DNA of 17,689 bases from a virus. Lineage: Duplodnaviria; Heunggongvirae; Uroviricota; Caudoviricetes. The position numbers were made by a program, and so were the translations under genes. The notes beneath the pieces are model-generated. The model had not been told where the DNA came from. It searched no databases and saw only the letters and a program-made list of their open reading frames with translations. The first letter of the stretch is position 1. The number at the start of each line of letters is the position of its first letter. Shown here in pieces: positions 1,419 to 16,117 of the stretch. Where the stretch lies: the IMG/VR virus record IMGVR_UViG_2526164690_000042. One strand, written 5' to 3'.

Positions 1419-2759
1419 TTAAAAATCAGCCTGACTCGGGATCAGTTTTTGCCAGATAACTGAAACGTATTTTGCCTGATAACGGGCGTCATCAAGTGCA
1501 TTATGGCGCTCACCTTCGAATGGAATAGCCGTTCTGGCATCGAAGTCTATGGCTTTCCCCAGCTCAACGATTGTGCGTACATCGCGATCGTTGTAGTAAC
1601 GCCACGGGCAGGGGATCCCCTGCCGTTCGTATGAACGGCGCAAAATCGTGTTATCGAAGTTGGCTCCATTTCCCCAGACCTGAACAAAAAATTCACCGGA
1701 GTTTTCGTCGATAAATTCCCGCAATTGTAACAGTGCATCATCTAACGGGATTTCATCGGTCATAATGGCAGATTGCGCTTCGCGTGATTGCTTAAGCCAC
1801 CATTTAATGGTGTCCCGATCAATGACTCCGCCAGCAGTTTCCAGATCGATAGTCTTACTAAATTCCGGTCCCATATCTCCGGTTTGCGGATCGAAAAATA
1901 TTGCACCTATTGAGATGATCGGGGCATCAGGATTTTTTCCCATGGTTTCAAGGTCGATCATTAGATGGTCACACGTCCTGCTGGTGGATGTGATTTCGTG
2001 ATGACCGTTCACCTTAATTGAGTGATCTGCCGTCTCGCCAGTTTCATTATCGCTATCGTGATGCTGATTGCCGCCAGTGTTCTCCTTGTGTGGATGTTCA
2101 GCGCCTTCCATTTTCTCCGGATCATCTTCCTGAACTTCAACCTGATACTCTTCATCGAATGTTTCCTGGTATGTTGCGTCGCCCATCACCGCGCCACAAT
2201 CAGGGCAGTTGCCGCCGCCGGTCTGACCGCAGGCGGTGCAGGCTTTTTCCACTTCCTGTTGCGCCACTGGTTCAGGCTGTTTCGTTTCTGGCTCGTTTTG
2301 TAACGCATTTGGGCTGTTTTGTTCCGCTTTTTGGTAGTTCCGTTCCGATTCATGCTGGTTCTGGTTTACAGAATCGCGGGTCTGGATCCCCTTAACCCAT
2401 TTCGGATCATTCGGGTCGCTAATCCCTGCAACAAATTCTCCGCGAGAGGCAGCAAGCAACTTATCGGCGTCAGGCTGGCTGATATTGGCTGCCTGCATAA
2501 TTTTGTTTACTTCGTCAGCGGTAACTTTTACCGGCTCTGGTTGTGCGGTCGTGTCAGATGCACCAGTATTTTGTTGTGAACCTGAGTATGTACTGTTTTT
2601 GCGGGCGAAATATTCTTCTTTCGTGATTTCAGTAGCCCCGGCAGCCAGTGCCTTATCCAGACCAGAAAGTTTGTTTGCGCGACCGTATTTTTCGCCATCC
2701 TTGTCGGTGAAGAGGAAGTAGAACGGCCCCTCACGCTCTACAGATGGTTCGACTTCCAC
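1419..2759 (-). CDS. DEDDh-family (DnaQ-like) 3'-5' exonuclease with N-terminal acidic low-complexity region and Cys4 zinc ribbon
   Basis: The C-terminal ~180 aa carry Exo I (MIDLETMG), Exo II ([13 protein letters not shown]) and Exo III ([13 protein letters not shown]) motifs. The N-terminal ~260 aa are Q/E/N/D-rich and include [16 protein letters not shown]. The start overlaps the stop of the upstream gene by about 22 nt. Confidence 0.8.
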
Positions 2760-3889
2760 TTTGCATTCGGTTTTTCGTTGTCCGGAATTGCCGTTTCCAC
2801 TGCATCAGTTTCTGGTACTGGCGACGAGAGAGTATCAGTTGCGCTCTGATTTGTTCCTTCATCTTCAAACACGCCCTTTGTAGTCAGGTATTCAGTAATG
2901 TATTTGTTCAGTGCCACAGGGTCTTTGTGAATGTCGATCGGACGTTCACGGACAAGGCCAAAAATAGTCTGGCGGTCGTAGCGAAGGGCATCAGGCTGTT
3001 TGCGCATTGATGCCGAGATACGCTTCCAGTCTTCGCGGTCGTTGTCGATAACTTCATTTTTTGCCCAGCGATGGATGCTGCCGTCAATGTTTCCGGCATC
3101 CACATCACCAGGCCAGAGAGCGTAGGCCAGTTCGTCATCCAGTGTTTTCCATGTCTGCTTGTATTCGCGATGAATGGCAGCAATGACCGGGCTGATTTTT
3201 CCTGTTGAATTTTCAGTGTGCTGTTGATTGGTTCTGGCGCGGGCGAGATCAACAACAGACGTGTATTTTCCGGTTTCCTTGCGTTCACCTTCGCGACGTT
3301 TTTTCCAGATGCGCATCTCTGCCTGAATTTCGGGCCATTTGGCACCAGGCTTACATTTATGCTTAACCCACCCGATGGCATGCAGCTTAAGCTCCGGATA
3401 CATGGCGTTAACTTCTGGCATTTTCATCAACGCTTCAACGATATGTCCGTCGAATGTTGCCATGTCTTCCTGCAACAATTCCTGTGCGCTAATAACCATA
3501 TCAACGGTGATGTTTTCACATGTGTCGAACTTAACCATGACAGCGTTCTGTACTTCAGGGGCCAGCTTGTCAAAAGTGACGTTCATCGGATCTGATTCAG
3601 TCTCAACCGGAACAAAGGAAGCAGACTCCTCATCCCAGCGGTTTTCCTGCATATATTCAGCATCCCATGAATCGAGGGCAGGGCGGGGTATGCCAGGTTT
3701 ATCCTCGCAGATAATAAATTTATAAGCGCAGTCCTGAGCAGCCGGATAATGTTCCAGGAATTGCCAGTGAAATTTTGCTCGAGCACGGCGTTCGTCGCCA
3801 GCTTCAATAGCTGTGGCTACAGCCACAGCGCCTTCTTCCCTTGTTGCCAGTTCGTCAGGAATGGCGGCGCAAATAAAGACTTTACTCAT
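2738..3889 (-). CDS. Hypothetical phage early-left protein (383 aa), function unknown
   Basis: Long uninterrupted ORF co-oriented with and translationally coupled to the exonuclease gene. No motif I can confidently assign. It sits where a recombination partner (SSAP) is found in lambdoid phages. Confidence 0.7.
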
Positions 3890-3982: not shown

Positions 3983-4174
3983 TTAAAGACCTGCCGGGAT
4001 TTCGATATTATCCTGGTGAATAACTTTATCTACCGGGTAACAGTTACCGGGAATTTTCTGTTCGGTTGCTGCAGTCATACACTCCTGCATTGTCCTGTGA
4101 ACACTGACTGCAATATCAACTGGCTCTCCGGAAACAAGAAAAACTGTCAGAACAAGTGCAAATGCTGTATTCAT
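3983..4174 (-). CDS. Small secreted or membrane-anchored protein (~63 aa) with N-terminal signal-like hydrophobic segment
   Basis: The 81-aa track ORF 3983..4228 is trimmed to the internal Met at 4174, which has an AGGA Shine-Dalgarno about 8 nt upstream and overlaps the upstream gene stop as ATGA. The product begins MNTAFALVLTVFLVSGEP…. Confidence 0.4.
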   Translation of the reverse strand: MNTAFALVLTVFLVSGEPVDIAVSVHRTMQECMTAATEQKIPGNCYPVDKVIHQDNIEIPAGL

Positions 4175-4359
4175 TGCCAGCATCCTTTTTGTATCGGACG
4201 TAAACGGGCCAACATTGAAAGAATGCATATTTTATTTAATAGCTCCCGTTCGTGTTTTCTCTTGTTAATGGCATCTTCAGTAAATACAGGGTTACTGATA
4301 GTGACACCAATTTCAAAACAACCTTCAGACGTATTAACGTTTGGTAATAACGTTTTCAT
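4171..4359 (-). CDS. Small hypothetical protein (~62 aa), translationally coupled to the downstream small ORF
   Basis: The 97-aa track ORF 4171..4464 starts with GTG. The internal ATG at 4359 is preceded by GAGGG about 7 nt upstream, so it is the more plausible start. The product is basic (…KRKHERELLNK…). Confidence 0.35.
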   Translation of the reverse strand: MKTLLPNVNTSEGCFEIGVTISNPVFTEDAINKRKHERELLNKICILSMLARLRPIQKGCWQ

Positions 4360-4848
4360 TATCGCGCCCTCAACAATGAGTTTTGTGATGCGGTGCCTGG
4401 TGCCTCCAGGTGACGTTAACCAGTTAACAACTAACGCCGGATACAGAGAATCCAACCATAACACTGTTTTTGGTTTTAACTGTTCCGCGTGCGCTTAGCC
4501 GCATTCACCGCATCACAAAATTCACTTTAAAAAGGGCGGCAGAGCAGTCACGGAGTAAAACTGATACCGCCAAACGTCACCAGAAAATTGATAACAGAGG
4601 GCGTTGCAGCGGGGTTGTCACTTAAGCGTATGGTCAACCTGACAACCCGGTGTCCTCAACGGGGGAAGGAATAACCCCGCCATACTTACCGCCGCGCCAT
4701 TTCGCGGATTGCCACAACCAGAAGCGCACGGTCGAAGAAATTTAACGACAAGACTTATATGCAAAGGGATCTCGCCGTGCGCTTTCGTGTTATGCCCTGA
4801 CTTTTCAGGGTAAATTAACCTGTGGAAACCTGTTTTTACTGGCGCTAA

Positions 4849-5088
4849 TCAGTTAGCGTTTCTGGCTAACCAGCGATGCGCGGCAGCTTCGGTTTTAAAC
4901 GTTTTACTTTTGGTATACGTCATCGCGGTAAACGTGCCGTCCTGATTGGGAAACACGCCACATACCAGAGATTCGTTGTTGCCAAGCTCGATAGTATCCA
5001 TGCTGACCTCATTTCCCCTTAACGCTGGGGTAGCGGAACTAAAAACCTGCTGCGCTGTTATACAAAGTGTTCCCGCCGTCATGTTCAT
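4849..5088 (-). CDS. Hypothetical protein (79 aa), first gene downstream of the leftward PL-like promoter
   Basis: ORF begins about 95 bp downstream of the predicted leftward promoter at 5183..5211. The product is not arginine-rich, so it is unlikely to be an N-like antiterminator. Confidence 0.5.
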   Translation of the reverse strand: MNMTAGTLCITAQQVFSSATPALRGNEVSMDTIELGNNESLVCGVFPNQDGTFTAMTYTKSKTFKTEAAAHRWLARNAN

Positions 5089-5182: not shown

Positions 5183-5225
5183 ACTATAGGAAATGCCTAA
5201 TTTCTTGTCAATAGGCTATGCCTAA
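5183..5225 (-). promoter_or_regulatory. Leftward early promoter (PL-like) with overlapping operator (OL-like)
   Basis: Read on the minus strand: -35 TTGACA (plus 5206..5211), 17-nt spacer, -10 TATAGT (plus 5183..5188). The half-site pair ATAGGC-N3-GCCTAA at 5211..5225 abuts the -35. A 20-mer here (tgtcaataggctatgcctaa, 5206..5225) is the exact reverse complement of 5850..5869 on the other side of the repressor gene. Confidence 0.6.
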
Positions 5226-5319: not shown

Positions 5320-5796
5320 TTAAGTTCCTGTCTTGGTGATGTTCTGGCTTTTCCGTTTTGATTCTTGATTTTTCAGATAGTTAGCTACCTTCATTTCCAT
5401 TGCGGCAATGTAGGCGCGAACGTCATGATCAACCCAACTAGGCTCCGTAGCATTTCCAGATAAGAGGAAAGCCACAATTGCTCTTTTTTCATCAGAGGCG
5501 GCTTGATAAAGGCTGTTTATGTCTAAAAGTTCACTTTTTGTATCTGAAGTGGATGGGGTTGGTATGGGGTATTCGTTAAGCCCCCAATGCTCTGGACCAA
5601 CCACATCAGAAAAGAAACGCCATAGTTCTGGAAGTTTGTCTTTACTTATCGAACCTTTCTTAATCCAGTCATGGATTGATGGTGGTTGGACTTTGAAATG
5701 ACGTGCGATTTCCGCCTTTGATTTGACGGCTCCTGATGCAATTTTTTTGTTAATGGCCTGCTCTATCGCTCGGCCTAAGTCTTTACCACTAAGCAT
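5320..5796 (-). CDS. racR: Prophage repressor, RacR-like (HTH, no LexA-type autocleavage domain apparent)
   Basis: 158-aa ORF transcribed divergently from the rightward early genes and flanked by operator/promoter modules. HTH-like segment KAEIARHFKVQPPSIHDWIKKG. An AGGAGA Shine-Dalgarno lies about 9 nt upstream. The sequence matches what I recall of E. coli Rac RacR, unverified. Confidence 0.75.
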   Translation of the reverse strand: MLSGKDLGRAIEQAINKKIASGAVKSKAEIARHFKVQPPSIHDWIKKGSISKDKLPELWRFFSDVVGPEHWGLNEYPIPTPSTSDTKSELLDINSLYQAASDEKRAIVAFLLSGNATEPSWVDHDVRAYIAAMEMKVANYLKNQESKRKSQNITKTGT

Positions 5797-11077: not shown

Positions 11078-11367
11078 CCTGGCCTGAAGCATTCACAACG
11101 GTAGGAATTGCGATGGCGGTGGCGCTGGTGGTGTATTCGATTTGCCACTGGGGATAAAAACGGTTTGCGGGAAAAGGATAGTTAAGTAGAATTGCTGCGG
11201 GTGCTTGAGGCTATCTGCCTCGGGCATGAACACCAACGGCAGATAGAGAAAAGCCCCAGTTAACATTACGCGTCCTGCAAGACGCTTAACATTAATCTGA
11301 GGCTCAATCCATGCTGAACACATGTAGGTTAGCCTCTTACGTGCCGAAAGGCAAGGAGAAGCAGGCT

Positions 11368-11523
11368 ATGAAGCAGCAAAAGGCGATGTTAATCGCCCTG
11401 ATCGTCATCTGTTTAACCGTCATAGTGACGGCACTGGTAACGAGGAAAGACCTCTGCGAGGTGCGAATCCGAACCGGTCAGACGGAGGTCGCTGTCTTCG
11501 TAGACTACGAATCTGAGAAGTAA
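11368..11523 (+). CDS. hok: Hok/Gef-family type I toxin (51 aa membrane peptide)
   Basis: MKQQKAMLIALIVICLTVIVTALVTRKDLCEVRIRTGQTEVAVFVDYESEK parallels Hok (…[37 protein letters not shown]). AAGGAG Shine-Dalgarno upstream. The track ORF starts in frame at 11311, which may be a mok-like leader. Confidence 0.85.
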   Translation: MKQQKAMLIALIVICLTVIVTALVTRKDLCEVRIRTGQTEVAVFVDYESEK

Positions 11524-13444: not shown

Positions 13445-13819
13445 ATGCGTATAGAGTTTGTTTTGCTTTACCCGCCGACGGTGAACACCTACTGGCGACG
13501 TCGTGGCAGCACATATTTTGTATCAAAAGCCGGTGAGCGTTATCGCCGGGCTGTGGCGCTTATTGTTCGCCAGCAGCGGCTGAAATTAAGCCTGTCCGGA
13601 AGGCTGGCGATAAAGATTATTGCCGAGCCACCGGATAAGCGCCGCCGTGACCTGGACAATATTCTGAAAGCGCCGCTGGATGCGCTGACGCATGCGGGGT
13701 TGCTAATGGACGACGAGCAGTTTGATGAAATCAATATCGTTCGTGCTCAGCCAGTATCTGGTGGACGTCTGGGGGTGAAGATTTACCCCATAATGCTTGA
13801 AGGGCAGGTCAAAAAATGA
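13445..13819 (+). CDS. rusA: Holliday junction resolvase RusA
   Basis: 124-aa protein with the RusA-like acidic catalytic region …PPDKRRRDLDNILKAPLDALTHAGLLMDDEQ…, at the canonical nin-region position just before Q. Confidence 0.9.
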   Translation: MRIEFVLLYPPTVNTYWRRRGSTYFVSKAGERYRRAVALIVRQQRLKLSLSGRLAIKIIAEPPDKRRRDLDNILKAPLDALTHAGLLMDDEQFDEINIVRAQPVSGGRLGVKIYPIMLEGQVKK

Positions 13820-14637
13820 AACTGGAAGATTTACCGAAATACTACTCCCCAAAATCCCCCGGCCTGACTGATGCATCGGCCTCAACGTCGAAAGATACGC
13901 TGAGTATCACTGATGTGATGGCCGCGCAGGGCATGACACAGAATTGGGCTGAGATGGGGTTTTCTGCGTTCCTTGGGAAAATGGGCATTAGTATGAATGA
14001 CAGAGAGCGGGCAACAGAATTGTTGACAGAATATGCACTCAGTCGGTGTGATCGCGTGGCGGCGTTAAGAAAACTCCCGGCAGAAATAAAACCGGCAGTG
14101 ATGCGTATTATGGCTTCGTATGCGTTTGAAGATTATGCCCGTAGCGCGGCGAGCAAAAAACAGTGCCCCTGTTGTCACGGAAAAAAATTTATTGAAAGCG
14201 AGGTTTTTACAAACAAGATCCAGTATCCGGATGGTAAGCCGCCAGTGTGGGCAAAGTGCACAAAAGGCGTGTATCCGTCTTACTGGGAGGAATGGAAAAA
14301 AGTCAGGGAGGTGGTAAAAGTTGCCTGTCCGGAGTGTGGAGGGAAGGGGGAGGTTTCCACCGCCTGTAAAGATTGTCGTGGGCGCGGTGTTGCCATTCAT
14401 CGTGAAGAGTCGGTAAAACGTGGTATGCCTGTTATCAGAGACTGCCAGCGTTGTGGTGGTCGTGGCTATGAAAGATTACCTTCAACGGAGGCATTTAATG
14501 CCATATGTAATGTGACCGATGCCATATCTCTTGATACATGGAAAAAAACAGTTAAACGTTTTTACGATACGCTGGTGGTGCAGTTTGATATTGAAGAAGC
14601 ATGGGCAGAACAACAACTGAAAAAGGTGACCAGATAG
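13816..14637 (+). CDS. Q: Late-gene antiterminator Q (zinc-finger type)
   Basis: 273-aa Cys-rich protein (CPCCHGK…CPECGGKG…CKDCRGRG…CQRCGGRG). ATGA overlap with rusA. A PR'/qut-like sequence and terminator follow immediately. Confidence 0.8.
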   Translation: MKLEDLPKYYSPKSPGLTDASASTSKDTLSITDVMAAQGMTQNWAEMGFSAFLGKMGISMNDRERATELLTEYALSRCDRVAALRKLPAEIKPAVMRIMASYAFEDYARSAASKKQCPCCHGKKFIESEVFTNKIQYPDGKPPVWAKCTKGVYPSYWEEWKKVREVVKVACPECGGKGEVSTACKDCRGRGVAIHREESVKRGMPVIRDCQRCGGRGYERLPSTEAFNAICNVTDAISLDTWKKTVKRFYDTLVVQFDIEEAWAEQQLKKVTR

Positions 14638-15082: not shown

Positions 15083-15204
15083 CGCCCGGCGCATATCAAC
15101 CACAGAGTCCGTTTCGGGGGTGAGCTTACGGAGTGGTCAGTGTGACTTTCTCTGTGGGCAGATCGCTCCCGGGCGTTGGCTCACCCACCCAAAGGAACGT
15201 CACG

Positions 15205-15636
15205 ATGTTTAGAATCTTCAAAAAGAAAACCCGCAGAGCGGCAGCGGAAATTAAAAAGTTTGAGAAACGCGATCTGGCACAGGCGGTGATTAACGCTGCA
15301 TACCTGGTGGCCTATGCAGATGGTGAATGCGAGGCATCCGAGAAAGCGAAGATCGAACAGGTCTTACGTAATCAGCCTGCGTTGTCTGCGTTTACCTCGG
15401 AAATTAATGCGATTAGCGCAACTATTATCGGTCAGCTGGATACCAATTTTAAAATTGGTCGTCGTGCCGCGTTACGCGAGATTGAGGATGTGAAACACGA
15501 TACGCGTGAAGCGGAAGATGTGCTGGATGTGGCGGTGGCCATTGCGGAGGCAGACGGCGAAATTGAGCCGGAAGAGCGCAAGGTGCTGGAAGAGATTGCC
15601 GGTGTTCTGGGTCTTCGTCTGGAGAATCACCTGTGA
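15205..15636 (+). CDS. TerB-like (tellurite-resistance TerB family) protein
   Basis: ATG at 15205 with AAAGGA Shine-Dalgarno (the track ORF begins with GTG at 15133). Acidic helical protein with TerB-like features (…DLAQAVINAAYLVAYADGECEASEKAKIEQVL… and …DVLDVAVAIAEADGEIEPEERKVLEEIAGVLGL…). Confidence 0.75.
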   Translation: MFRIFKKKTRRAAAEIKKFEKRDLAQAVINAAYLVAYADGECEASEKAKIEQVLRNQPALSAFTSEINAISATIIGQLDTNFKIGRRAALREIEDVKHDTREAEDVLDVAVAIAEADGEIEPEERKVLEEIAGVLGLRLENHL

Positions 15637-15884
15637 CGGTAAAACTGCGCCTGGCTGTGGCTGCACTCCTGCTGTTTCTGGTGGTGATGGTGGATTTCAC
15701 CAGCAGAATCATGTCGGTGCTGGCGGATGGGGTGCTGGTCTGCGGCATTGTGGTATTGCTGTGGCCGGTGATAAAAAGAACAGCCTGCATAATGCTTGAT
15801 TTTTTTGTTTACTGTTTATTAAAAATACTACTGCATGGTGAATCCCCCTGTGCGGAGGGGCAATCAGCAACCAGGTATATGTGA
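15633..15884 (+). CDS. Small hydrophobic membrane protein coupled to the TerB-like gene
   Basis: GTG start overlaps the TerB-like stop. Two hydrophobic segments (LAVAALLLFLVVMV and GVLVCGIVVLLWPVI). The C-terminal end and exact start are uncertain. Confidence 0.4.
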   Translation: MTVKLRLAVAALLLFLVVMVDFTSRIMSVLADGVLVCGIVVLLWPVIKRTACIMLDFFVYCLLKILLHGESPCAEGQSATRYM

Positions 15885-15966
15885 TAATCGCGGATTCAGG
15901 TGCTGATACTGAATTCACCGGGAGGCACCCGGCACCATGCAAGAAAAAGAATGTGCATGCAAACAT

Positions 15967-15990
15967 GCCCCTCTCCGGAGGGGCTTTTTT
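15967..15990 (+). terminator. Intrinsic terminator (plus strand) ending the TerB-like/membrane unit
   Basis: gcccctc-tccg-gaggggc hairpin followed by tttttt. Confidence 0.6.
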
Positions 15991-15995
15991 ATGGG

Positions 15996-16021
15996 TAAAA
16001 AATGCCCGAATGGGTTCGGGC
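15996..16021 (-). terminator. Candidate minus-strand intrinsic terminator, convergent with the previous one
   Basis: Plus strand aaaaaat-gcccgaa-tggg-ttcgggc. On the minus strand this is a 7-bp hairpin followed by a T-run. Confidence 0.4.
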
Positions 16022-16117
16022 AATAGCATGAGATACTGATATTGTTGTGTTGTTATCGTGTGGATTTTAACCAGGGTTTATCAGGCTGCGCAACTGCGTG
16101 GCCTTTTTTCATTTCTT

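Follow-up and report, generated by a model that had tools for sequence, protein, structure and literature searches.

A DicF locus with a conserved pseudoknotted leader domain in a Qin/Rac-like lambdoid prophage of Escherichia coli

Introduction

What does a structured stretch of 350 base pairs (bp) without a gene do inside the leftward early operon of a lambdoid prophage? The question is raised by positions 4499-4848 of IMGVR_UViG_2526164690_000042, an IMG/VR record of a virus of the class Caudoviricetes; the whole stretch of 17,689 nucleotides (nt) that was analysed is referred to here as the window. The original prediction, made from the sequence alone, described this segment as free of open reading frames (ORFs), pointed out a hairpin resembling the boxB element of phage lambda, two inverted repeats and a possible terminator, and proposed a factor-independent, put-like antitermination element, a processed leader or a small RNA (sRNA). 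The last two of these readings turned out to hold together, since the segment carries the sRNA DicF and its leader; the resemblance to a lambda nut site was not upheld, and the put-like reading received no direct support. DicF and its processing have been under study since 1990. The segment is almost certainly the non-coding core of the dicBF-type leftward early operon of a Qin/Rac-like lambdoid prophage of Escherichia coli, composed of the DicF gene and a processed leader. The feature was thus already known, and represents a further copy of the dicF locus. The new point is a conserved pseudoknotted domain in the leader.

Identification of DicF in the ORF-free segment

The Rfam model of DicF (RF00039) matched the minus strand at 4534-4585 with 76.7 bits, against a gathering cutoff of 48, and the match covered model positions 1-52 of 52. 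Together with the terminator U-tract (4533-4529), the 53-nt sRNA (4586-4534) occupies 4529..4586 on the minus strand. All 53 nucleotides were identical to DicF of strain K-12, and this identity extended over all alignment columns, the seed included. On a larger scale, the window from 4815 to 4340 was ~95-100% identical to the spacer between ydfC, dicF and dicB in the K-12 prophage Qin. The possible minus-strand terminator with a T-run proved to be DicF's own, consisting of a GGCGG...CCGCC hairpin followed by TTTTT (4572->4529); a simple terminator scan had overlooked it owing to its loop-size limits. The position of the gene agreed as well, with the order ydfA, leader, DicF, dicB and ydfD and an intrinsic terminator of GGCGG...CCGCC plus U5 at the 3' end of the sRNA. 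The flagged segment is therefore the known DicF locus, and nothing in the analysis contradicted this assignment.

The claim that the segment holds no credible ORF was confirmed. The largest frames within 4499-4848 comprised 31-51 amino acids (aa), began with TTG or GTG and had no Pfam match, and in a near-identical genome the Prokaryotic Genome Annotation Pipeline (PGAP) left the gap between dicB and the DUF1391 gene empty. The segment contained 6 perfect inverted repeats of at least 8 bp, compared with 0.31 expected, and none of 300 shuffles reached 6. Relative to shuffles, its fold z-score was -3.6 on the minus strand and -2.5 on the plus strand.

The locus closely resembles the dicBF operon of K-12 Qin, in which DicF likewise follows ydf genes and precedes dicB-ydfD, under a pL-like promoter controlled by a repressor. 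DicF and its terminator are identical in the two prophages, and identity is 95-100% over ~230 nt on the upstream side and 170 nt on the downstream side. In contrast to K-12 Qin, the prophage in the window has no ydfB and ydfC, so that ydfA abuts the leader; its immunity region is of the RacR/YdaS/YdaT type, whereas that of K-12 is DicA/DicC; and it adjoins potC and retains exo-xis-int and Q. Similarities were also found to SroC, CpxQ and SdhX, Hfq-dependent sRNAs of intra-operonic or 3' untranslated region origin, whose 3' ends are set by intrinsic terminators and whose 5' ends are set by RNase E (PMC9438474). DicF differs from them by an additional RNase III step and by a large, conserved, structured 5' precursor domain, which is not described for SroC, CpxQ or SdhX in that review (PMC9438474).

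A covarying pseudoknotted domain in the DicF precursor

The 5' part of pre-DicF (4603..4718, minus strand) was found to be a pseudoknotted RNA domain of ~117 nt. From 21 sequences we built a covariance model, with which 83 distinct copies were recovered. In minus-strand coordinates, the domain is composed of helices P0 (4718-4712/4609-4603), H1 (4707-4703/4696-4692), P2 (4691-4688/4651-4648), H2 (4679-4675/4664-4660) and H3 (4647-4640/4620-4613), together with a pseudoknot between 4685-4680 and 4633-4628. H3 corresponds to the ggttgtca/tgacaacc inverted repeat of the original prediction, for which the repeat search returned a perfect match of 9 bp (4612-4620/4640-4648).

Standard base pairs occupied 95.8% of the 2904 cells. 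Changes on both sides of a pair were observed at 12 of the 35 pairs, compared with 4.5±1.5 in shuffled alignments (none of 500 reached 12) and 5 or fewer in slid controls. Pair 47/101 of H2, for example, occurred as G-C, U-A, C-G and A-U. H3 was mostly GGGUUGUCA/UGACAACCC and was replaced by GGGUAACCA/UGGUUACCC in Izhakiella, and a U-A pair of the pseudoknot was changed to C-G in phage P1. Structure covariance across related prophages, which had been suggested as a check of the segment, thus supported the domain at 4603-4718 with 83 distinct sequences.

The domain is accordingly a covarying pseudoknotted RNA, and it is new relative to Rfam, which returned nothing on 4597-4723 at E<=10 except DicF and noise. 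A tRNA- or tmRNA-like domain was rejected, as ARAGORN reported only two real tRNAs, at 14.8-15.0 kb. No discussion of the domain was found in the DicF literature searched, a scope outside which lie Faubladier & Bouche 1994 and the P1 genome paper, Lobocka 2004.

Distribution of the domain and of the elements behind it

A BLAST search found the domain in phage cdtI, Stx2c phages, Salmonella phage F1055, P1 and P7. The copies of these last two phages lie downstream of the C1-controlled Pban promoter, and in the P1 record part of the domain is covered by a 'dicF-like region' annotated at 68791-68892. Pattern scans combined with nhmmer added Escherichia albertii, E. ruysiae, Shigella, Citrobacter, Trabulsiella, Erwinia, Izhakiella and many IMG/VR contigs; the pattern scan of genome contigs also produced ~17 chance matches outside Enterobacterales, which were discarded by nhmmer. 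The domain is therefore conserved much more widely than DicF.

Of the 83 distinct copies, 82 showed a hairpin followed by a T-run downstream of the domain in an automated scan, the sequence of the remaining locus (L176) ending before that point. Inspected by eye, most of these downstream hairpins had the form GGCGG...CCGCC with U5-6 behind it. Between the domain and the terminator, lineages differed in the linker, which in Qin-type copies forms the DicF seed, and the Rfam DicF model recognised only the Qin type among the 3' elements. Lineages with differing seed linkers were represented by loci L004 (1617-1675), L005, L026/L042, L046, L049 and L003/L009. A shared domain, a varied linker and a terminator together make up a unit of conserved domain, variable seed and terminator, an arrangement of sequences that suggests a family of DicF-like sRNAs with a common 5' domain and diversified targets.

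Predicted processing of the precursor

In K-12, DicF is cut from the polycistronic dicBF transcript and its 3' end arises by intrinsic termination (PMC10448788). RNase III sets the 5' end of a 190-nt species, from which RNase E yields the 53-nt DicF (PMC10448788; PMC5069750), and in read-through transcripts an RNase III cut creates the 3' end of a 72-nt DicF (PMC5069750; PMC9438474). By analogy with K-12, the same RNase III and RNase E steps would apply in the window, as would the published targets of DicF, which represses ftsZ, manX, xylR and pykA and activates pchA in enterohaemorrhagic E. coli (EHEC).

Given its length and the position of the terminator, the 190-nt species would begin at ~4719. 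This position lies within a long stem-loop (4713..4794, minus strand) that is presumed to be the RNase III site. Its core, AAGCGCACGG/CCGUGCGCUU (4784-4775/4731-4722), is the second inverted repeat of the original prediction, gcgcacgg/ccgtgcgc, which was found to be perfect over 10 bp (4722-4731/4775-4784). In the minimum free energy (MFE) prediction the stem is extended to ~23 bp by CAUAAC/GUUGUG (4794-4789/4718-4713). Among relatives the outer part of the stem is conserved and the apex varies, and CAYAAC still pairs with GUUGUG. From the published fragment length, we infer that an RNase III cut near 4719 makes the 5' end of the ~190-nt pre-DicF. Two pairing partners are available to GUUGUG, namely the upstream strand of the RNase III stem and the 3' strand of P0; cleavage by RNase III would therefore release GUUGUG to close the domain, and the RNase III stem and P0 may be the two states of a switch. 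Further downstream, the AU-rich single-stranded linker GCCCUCUGUUAUCAAU (4587..4602, minus strand), which is identical to that of K-12, is the putative RNase E site for the DicF 5' end, the exact cut position within it being deduced from that end.

The spacer between dicF and dicB (4377..4524, minus strand) is also structured, with a fold z-score of -5.0, and lies directly upstream of the dicB ribosome-binding site. It contains a 19-bp stem (4524-4506/4395-4377) formed by a repeat that is 95% complementary. The 3' end of the 72-nt DicF would fall at ~4515, in the 5' arm of this stem, which is likely the RNase III site that gives rise to it. Both predicted stems present a mostly continuous duplex of ~20 bp or more at the expected cleavage position, as is required of an RNase III site. 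Early leaders of lambda contain a comparable element (the N-leader site), in which a long duplex just before the ribosome-binding site of the first downstream gene is cut by RNase III. The sequences are unrelated, however, and the duplex in the window, unlike that of lambda, encloses an STnc100-like spacer. The match of this spacer to STnc100 (RF02076) was below threshold, with 37.6 bits against a cutoff of 47 and a partial model (21-154). Sub-threshold STnc100 matches were also observed ahead of dicB or kil in K-12, RM9387, Shigella phage 75/02, pPE4 and STEC1589, and ahead of tciA in P1. As a separate observation, the MFE fold paired the 3' arm of DicF with the Shine-Dalgarno region of dicB; given this pairing, RNase III cleavage of the spacer might control dicB translation.

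Alternative explanations of the segment

Two other readings of the segment were considered, namely that it encodes a small protein or that it carries a nut site. An ORF of 31 aa at 4634-4729 (minus strand) matched PHROG 8854 with an E value of 1.9e-17, and annotations of a 'hypothetical protein' overlap the region in several phage records. However, this ORF starts with GTG, is truncated in comparison to the 59-aa PHROG profile and contains a 1-nt indel between the window and K-12. The length between invariant anchors took all residues modulo 3 (42, 28 and 13 of the 83 sequences), so that the frame is not preserved; no sense-strand frame was open in 76 of the 83 homologues, and the substitutions were compensatory for the RNA helices. 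A coding function, with no Pfam match and no conserved frame, was therefore rejected as extremely improbable, and the PHROG match is best explained by ORF calling across conserved non-coding DNA. As to the nut site, the hairpin CCCTGAAAAGTCAGGG highlighted by the original prediction is indeed present on the minus strand (4795..4810, read 4810->4795), with a 6-bp CCCUGA/UCAGGG stem, an AAAG tetraloop and a folding energy of -9.0 kcal/mol. In favour of CCCUGAAAAGUCAGGG being a lambda-type nutL boxB, through which an N-like protein would be recruited to bring about antitermination, are the 9-nt string CCCUGAAAA, which is shared with lambda boxB and occurs once in the window, and a location within the leftward early transcript that corresponds to the pL transcript of lambda. 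Its geometry is different from that of boxB, which needs a 5-bp stem and a GNRA-like pentaloop (GAAAA or GAAGA): the 3' arm is out of register, and the pentaloop register would have to be closed by a U-G pair with a C-U mismatch next to it. No boxA (CGCUCUUA-like) was matched on the minus strand with one mismatch or fewer at 4780-4900, and the window-wide count was that expected by chance. Consistent with the earlier statement that no N-like protein is encoded, the leftward operon comprised DUF1391/ydfA, DicB, DUF1482/ydfD, the exonuclease, xis and int. Of the shuffled sequences, 36% contained one or more perfect 6-bp hairpins with a loop of 3-8 nt, which places the boxB-like hairpin no higher than chance. 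Across 165 related loci it was intact in 28, had lost two pairs in 35, carried a compensatory CUC/GAG change in 3 and was absent from 89, the commonest variant being the K-12 form with four of the six pairs. In contrast to lambda nutL, the locus lacks a boxB fold, a nearby boxA, an N gene and a conserved hairpin. The nut reading was rejected on boxA, loop geometry, chance frequency and poor conservation, leaving it scarcely credible; the hairpin is probably incidental, or a minor stabilising one, rather than a nut site.

The remaining alternative concerns the domain at 4603-4718 itself, which would act in cis as a processive antiterminator, either put-like or as a Nus-assisted nut without N, and would carry polymerases past the DicF terminator and later ones. 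We consider this reading unlikely. The put RNA binds the zinc-binding domain of the RNA polymerase beta' subunit and suppresses termination without protein factors. In HK022 it is ~70 nt long, is composed of two stem-loops with a triplex, and is present in copies downstream of pL and pR (PMC9378689). The domain shares with HK022 put a place in a lambdoid early operon without N and the character of a conserved structured RNA ahead of the first terminator, which is promoter-proximal in cdtI-type relatives. The operon has no N gene, although each of dicB, ydfD, exo, xis and int is situated beyond the DicF terminator, and among the 83 copies the domain keeps its place before a hairpin and T-run in 82 while the linker varies. 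Phage cdtI and Stx2c phages carry the domain in an untranslated leader ~285 nt past a pL-like promoter with no N gene between, and in P1 and P7 it comes after Pban. Furthermore, a boxA-like UGCUCU(C/U)(A/U) sits 2-3 nt before P0 in non-Qin relatives (1491-1498 of L004, which is phage cdtI, as well as F1055, Trabulsiella, Erwinia and relatives of L079), the other upstream sequence being unrelated. In the Qin type, however, what corresponds to this motif is a degenerate UGCGCUUC that lies hidden within the RNase III stem. The domain has no sequence or structure similarity to HK022 put: for the put region at 20-32 kb of HK022 the best BLAST E value was 2.7, Rfam at E<=0.1 returned nothing and the domain covariance model gave no match, and homology was rejected on these three negative searches. 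In contrast to the two stem-loops of put (PMC9378689), the ~117-nt domain has five helices and a pseudoknot, and whereas HK022 has both putL and putR, a single copy per locus, and one in the whole window, was found, in the leftward operon only. The U-tract of DicF comprises only five U, so that simple leakiness may suffice, and the read-through transcript in K-12 is minor and was observed only on RNase E inactivation (PMC10448788). That the domain is an undescribed class of cis-acting phage RNA that confers terminator resistance, alone or with Nus factors via the adjacent boxA-like motif, is thus doubtful. If true, it would add a third lambdoid solution for early antitermination to N/nut and put, and would explain how phages without N make a terminated sRNA and still express the genes behind its terminator.

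Proposed mechanism and its implications

Our working view is that the domain may be a processing or stability scaffold for the DicF precursor. Transcription would start at the repressor-controlled pL-like promoter (~5180) and pass through ydfA into an untranslated stretch of 320 nt. There the nascent RNA would form the long hairpin at 4794-4713, which RNase III would cut near 4719. The freed 5' end would close P0 of the compact five-helix pseudoknotted domain (4718-4603), resulting in a pre-DicF of ~190 nt. Cleavage of the AU-rich linker by RNase E would then release the 53-nt Hfq-dependent DicF (4586-4534), with its 3' end set by its own terminator. Polymerases that read through would enter the second structured spacer, where RNase III cleavage would give rise to the 72-nt DicF, and would proceed into dicB, ydfD, the exonuclease gene, xis and int.

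Several points weigh against this scheme. The nested helices were aligned by fitting to the model, which biases them towards pairing, and P0 and the pseudoknot lie outside the model. The homologues were seeded by exact-match patterns in two conserved stretches, so conservation is inflated there and diversity is limited. The cut positions are taken from published K-12 fragment lengths and are accurate to ±3 nt, and the scaffold role is one that we infer. In addition, the MFE structure of the whole segment paired DicF with upstream sequence instead of forming the Rfam hairpin; as single-sequence folding of this kind does not settle the architecture, it was not used for that purpose.

Conserved well beyond DicF, P1 and P7 included, the 5' portion of pre-DicF is more than a passive leader. 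Candidate roles of the domain comprise a processing scaffold, a stability element and an antiterminator. Its role could explain how sRNA output is balanced against expression of dicB, the recombination genes and int-xis, and how lambdoid phages without N get past early terminators.

Operon context and other features of the window

Across 11.3 kb the window was 99.97% identical to a prophage adjoining potC in E. coli O111:H11 strain 88.0502. Read along the minus strand, the window carries, in order, a racR-type repressor gene, the promoter, DUF1391/ydfA, the ORF-free stretch, dicB, ydfD/DUF1482, a recE-like exonuclease gene, xis and int. An identical order (cI-ydfABC-DicF-dicB-ydfD-exo-xis-int) was found in the functional phage Tritos, which is likewise without an N gene. 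The region was matched in 4755 of 5426 complete E. coli genomes, at a median of two places per genome, in agreement with reports that dicF has multiplied in EHEC (PMC7873438; PMC5069750).

The racR-type repressor gene (5320-5796) lies upstream of a pL-type early promoter at 5183..5211 (minus strand), the equivalent of dicBp, which was identified in a consensus scan as TTGACA-17-TATAGT with 11 of 12 matches and agrees in position with dicBp of K-12 (PMC10448788). Judged by its near-consensus sigma-70 sequence, this promoter (5211-5183) is predicted to be active as a pL-like promoter. The first gene of the operon is the ydfA-like DUF1391 gene at 4849..5001 (minus strand), supported by Pfam DUF1391 (E 3e-28), the PGAP start at 5001 in a near-identical genome and the K-12 alignment. 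Its start is uncertain: the frame is open to an ATG at 5088 (79 aa), whereas the PGAP start at 5001 gives 50 aa, and Pfam DUF1391 covers residues 31-77 only and PHROG 751 residues 13-78. The first gene past the DicF terminator is dicB (4171..4359, minus strand), which encodes a cell-division inhibitor of 62 aa and was matched over its full length by Pfam DicB (E 2e-37) and annotated by PGAP.

The recE-like exonuclease gene (1419-3889, minus strand) was broken into the overlapping ORFs 1419-2759 and 2738-3889. In strain 88.0502 the gene is intact with 2472 nt, and this strain differs from the window by 2 mismatches and 1 gap across the 11.3 kb. The split probably reflects either a frameshift that has made the gene a pseudogene or an error in sequencing. 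Near-identical E. coli prophage DNA was also present in MT713136.1 and PP818812.1, which are named Aeromonas phage AP1 and Actinobacillus phage vB_Apl-pPE4, and in metagenome-assembled genomes labelled Bacillota, Veillonella and Collinsella (loci L034, L035 and L040). These occurrences probably reflect contamination, misassembly or mis-binning.

Elsewhere in the window, a hok/sok toxin-antitoxin locus was identified at 11199-11523 (plus strand) by an Rfam sok match of 113.5 bits and a Hok/Gef ORF of 70 aa. An STnc100 element at 15807-15996 (plus strand, 147.8 bits) abuts a convergent AgvB anti-GcvB sRNA (minus strand, 96.5 bits), the whole spanning 15807-16058. Upstream of this STnc100 lie a Q antiterminator gene (13816-14637), tRNA-Met, tRNA-Arg and a TerB-like ORF (15133-15636), and the same set of tRNAs, TerB-like gene and STnc100-like element was found in the ban operon of P1.

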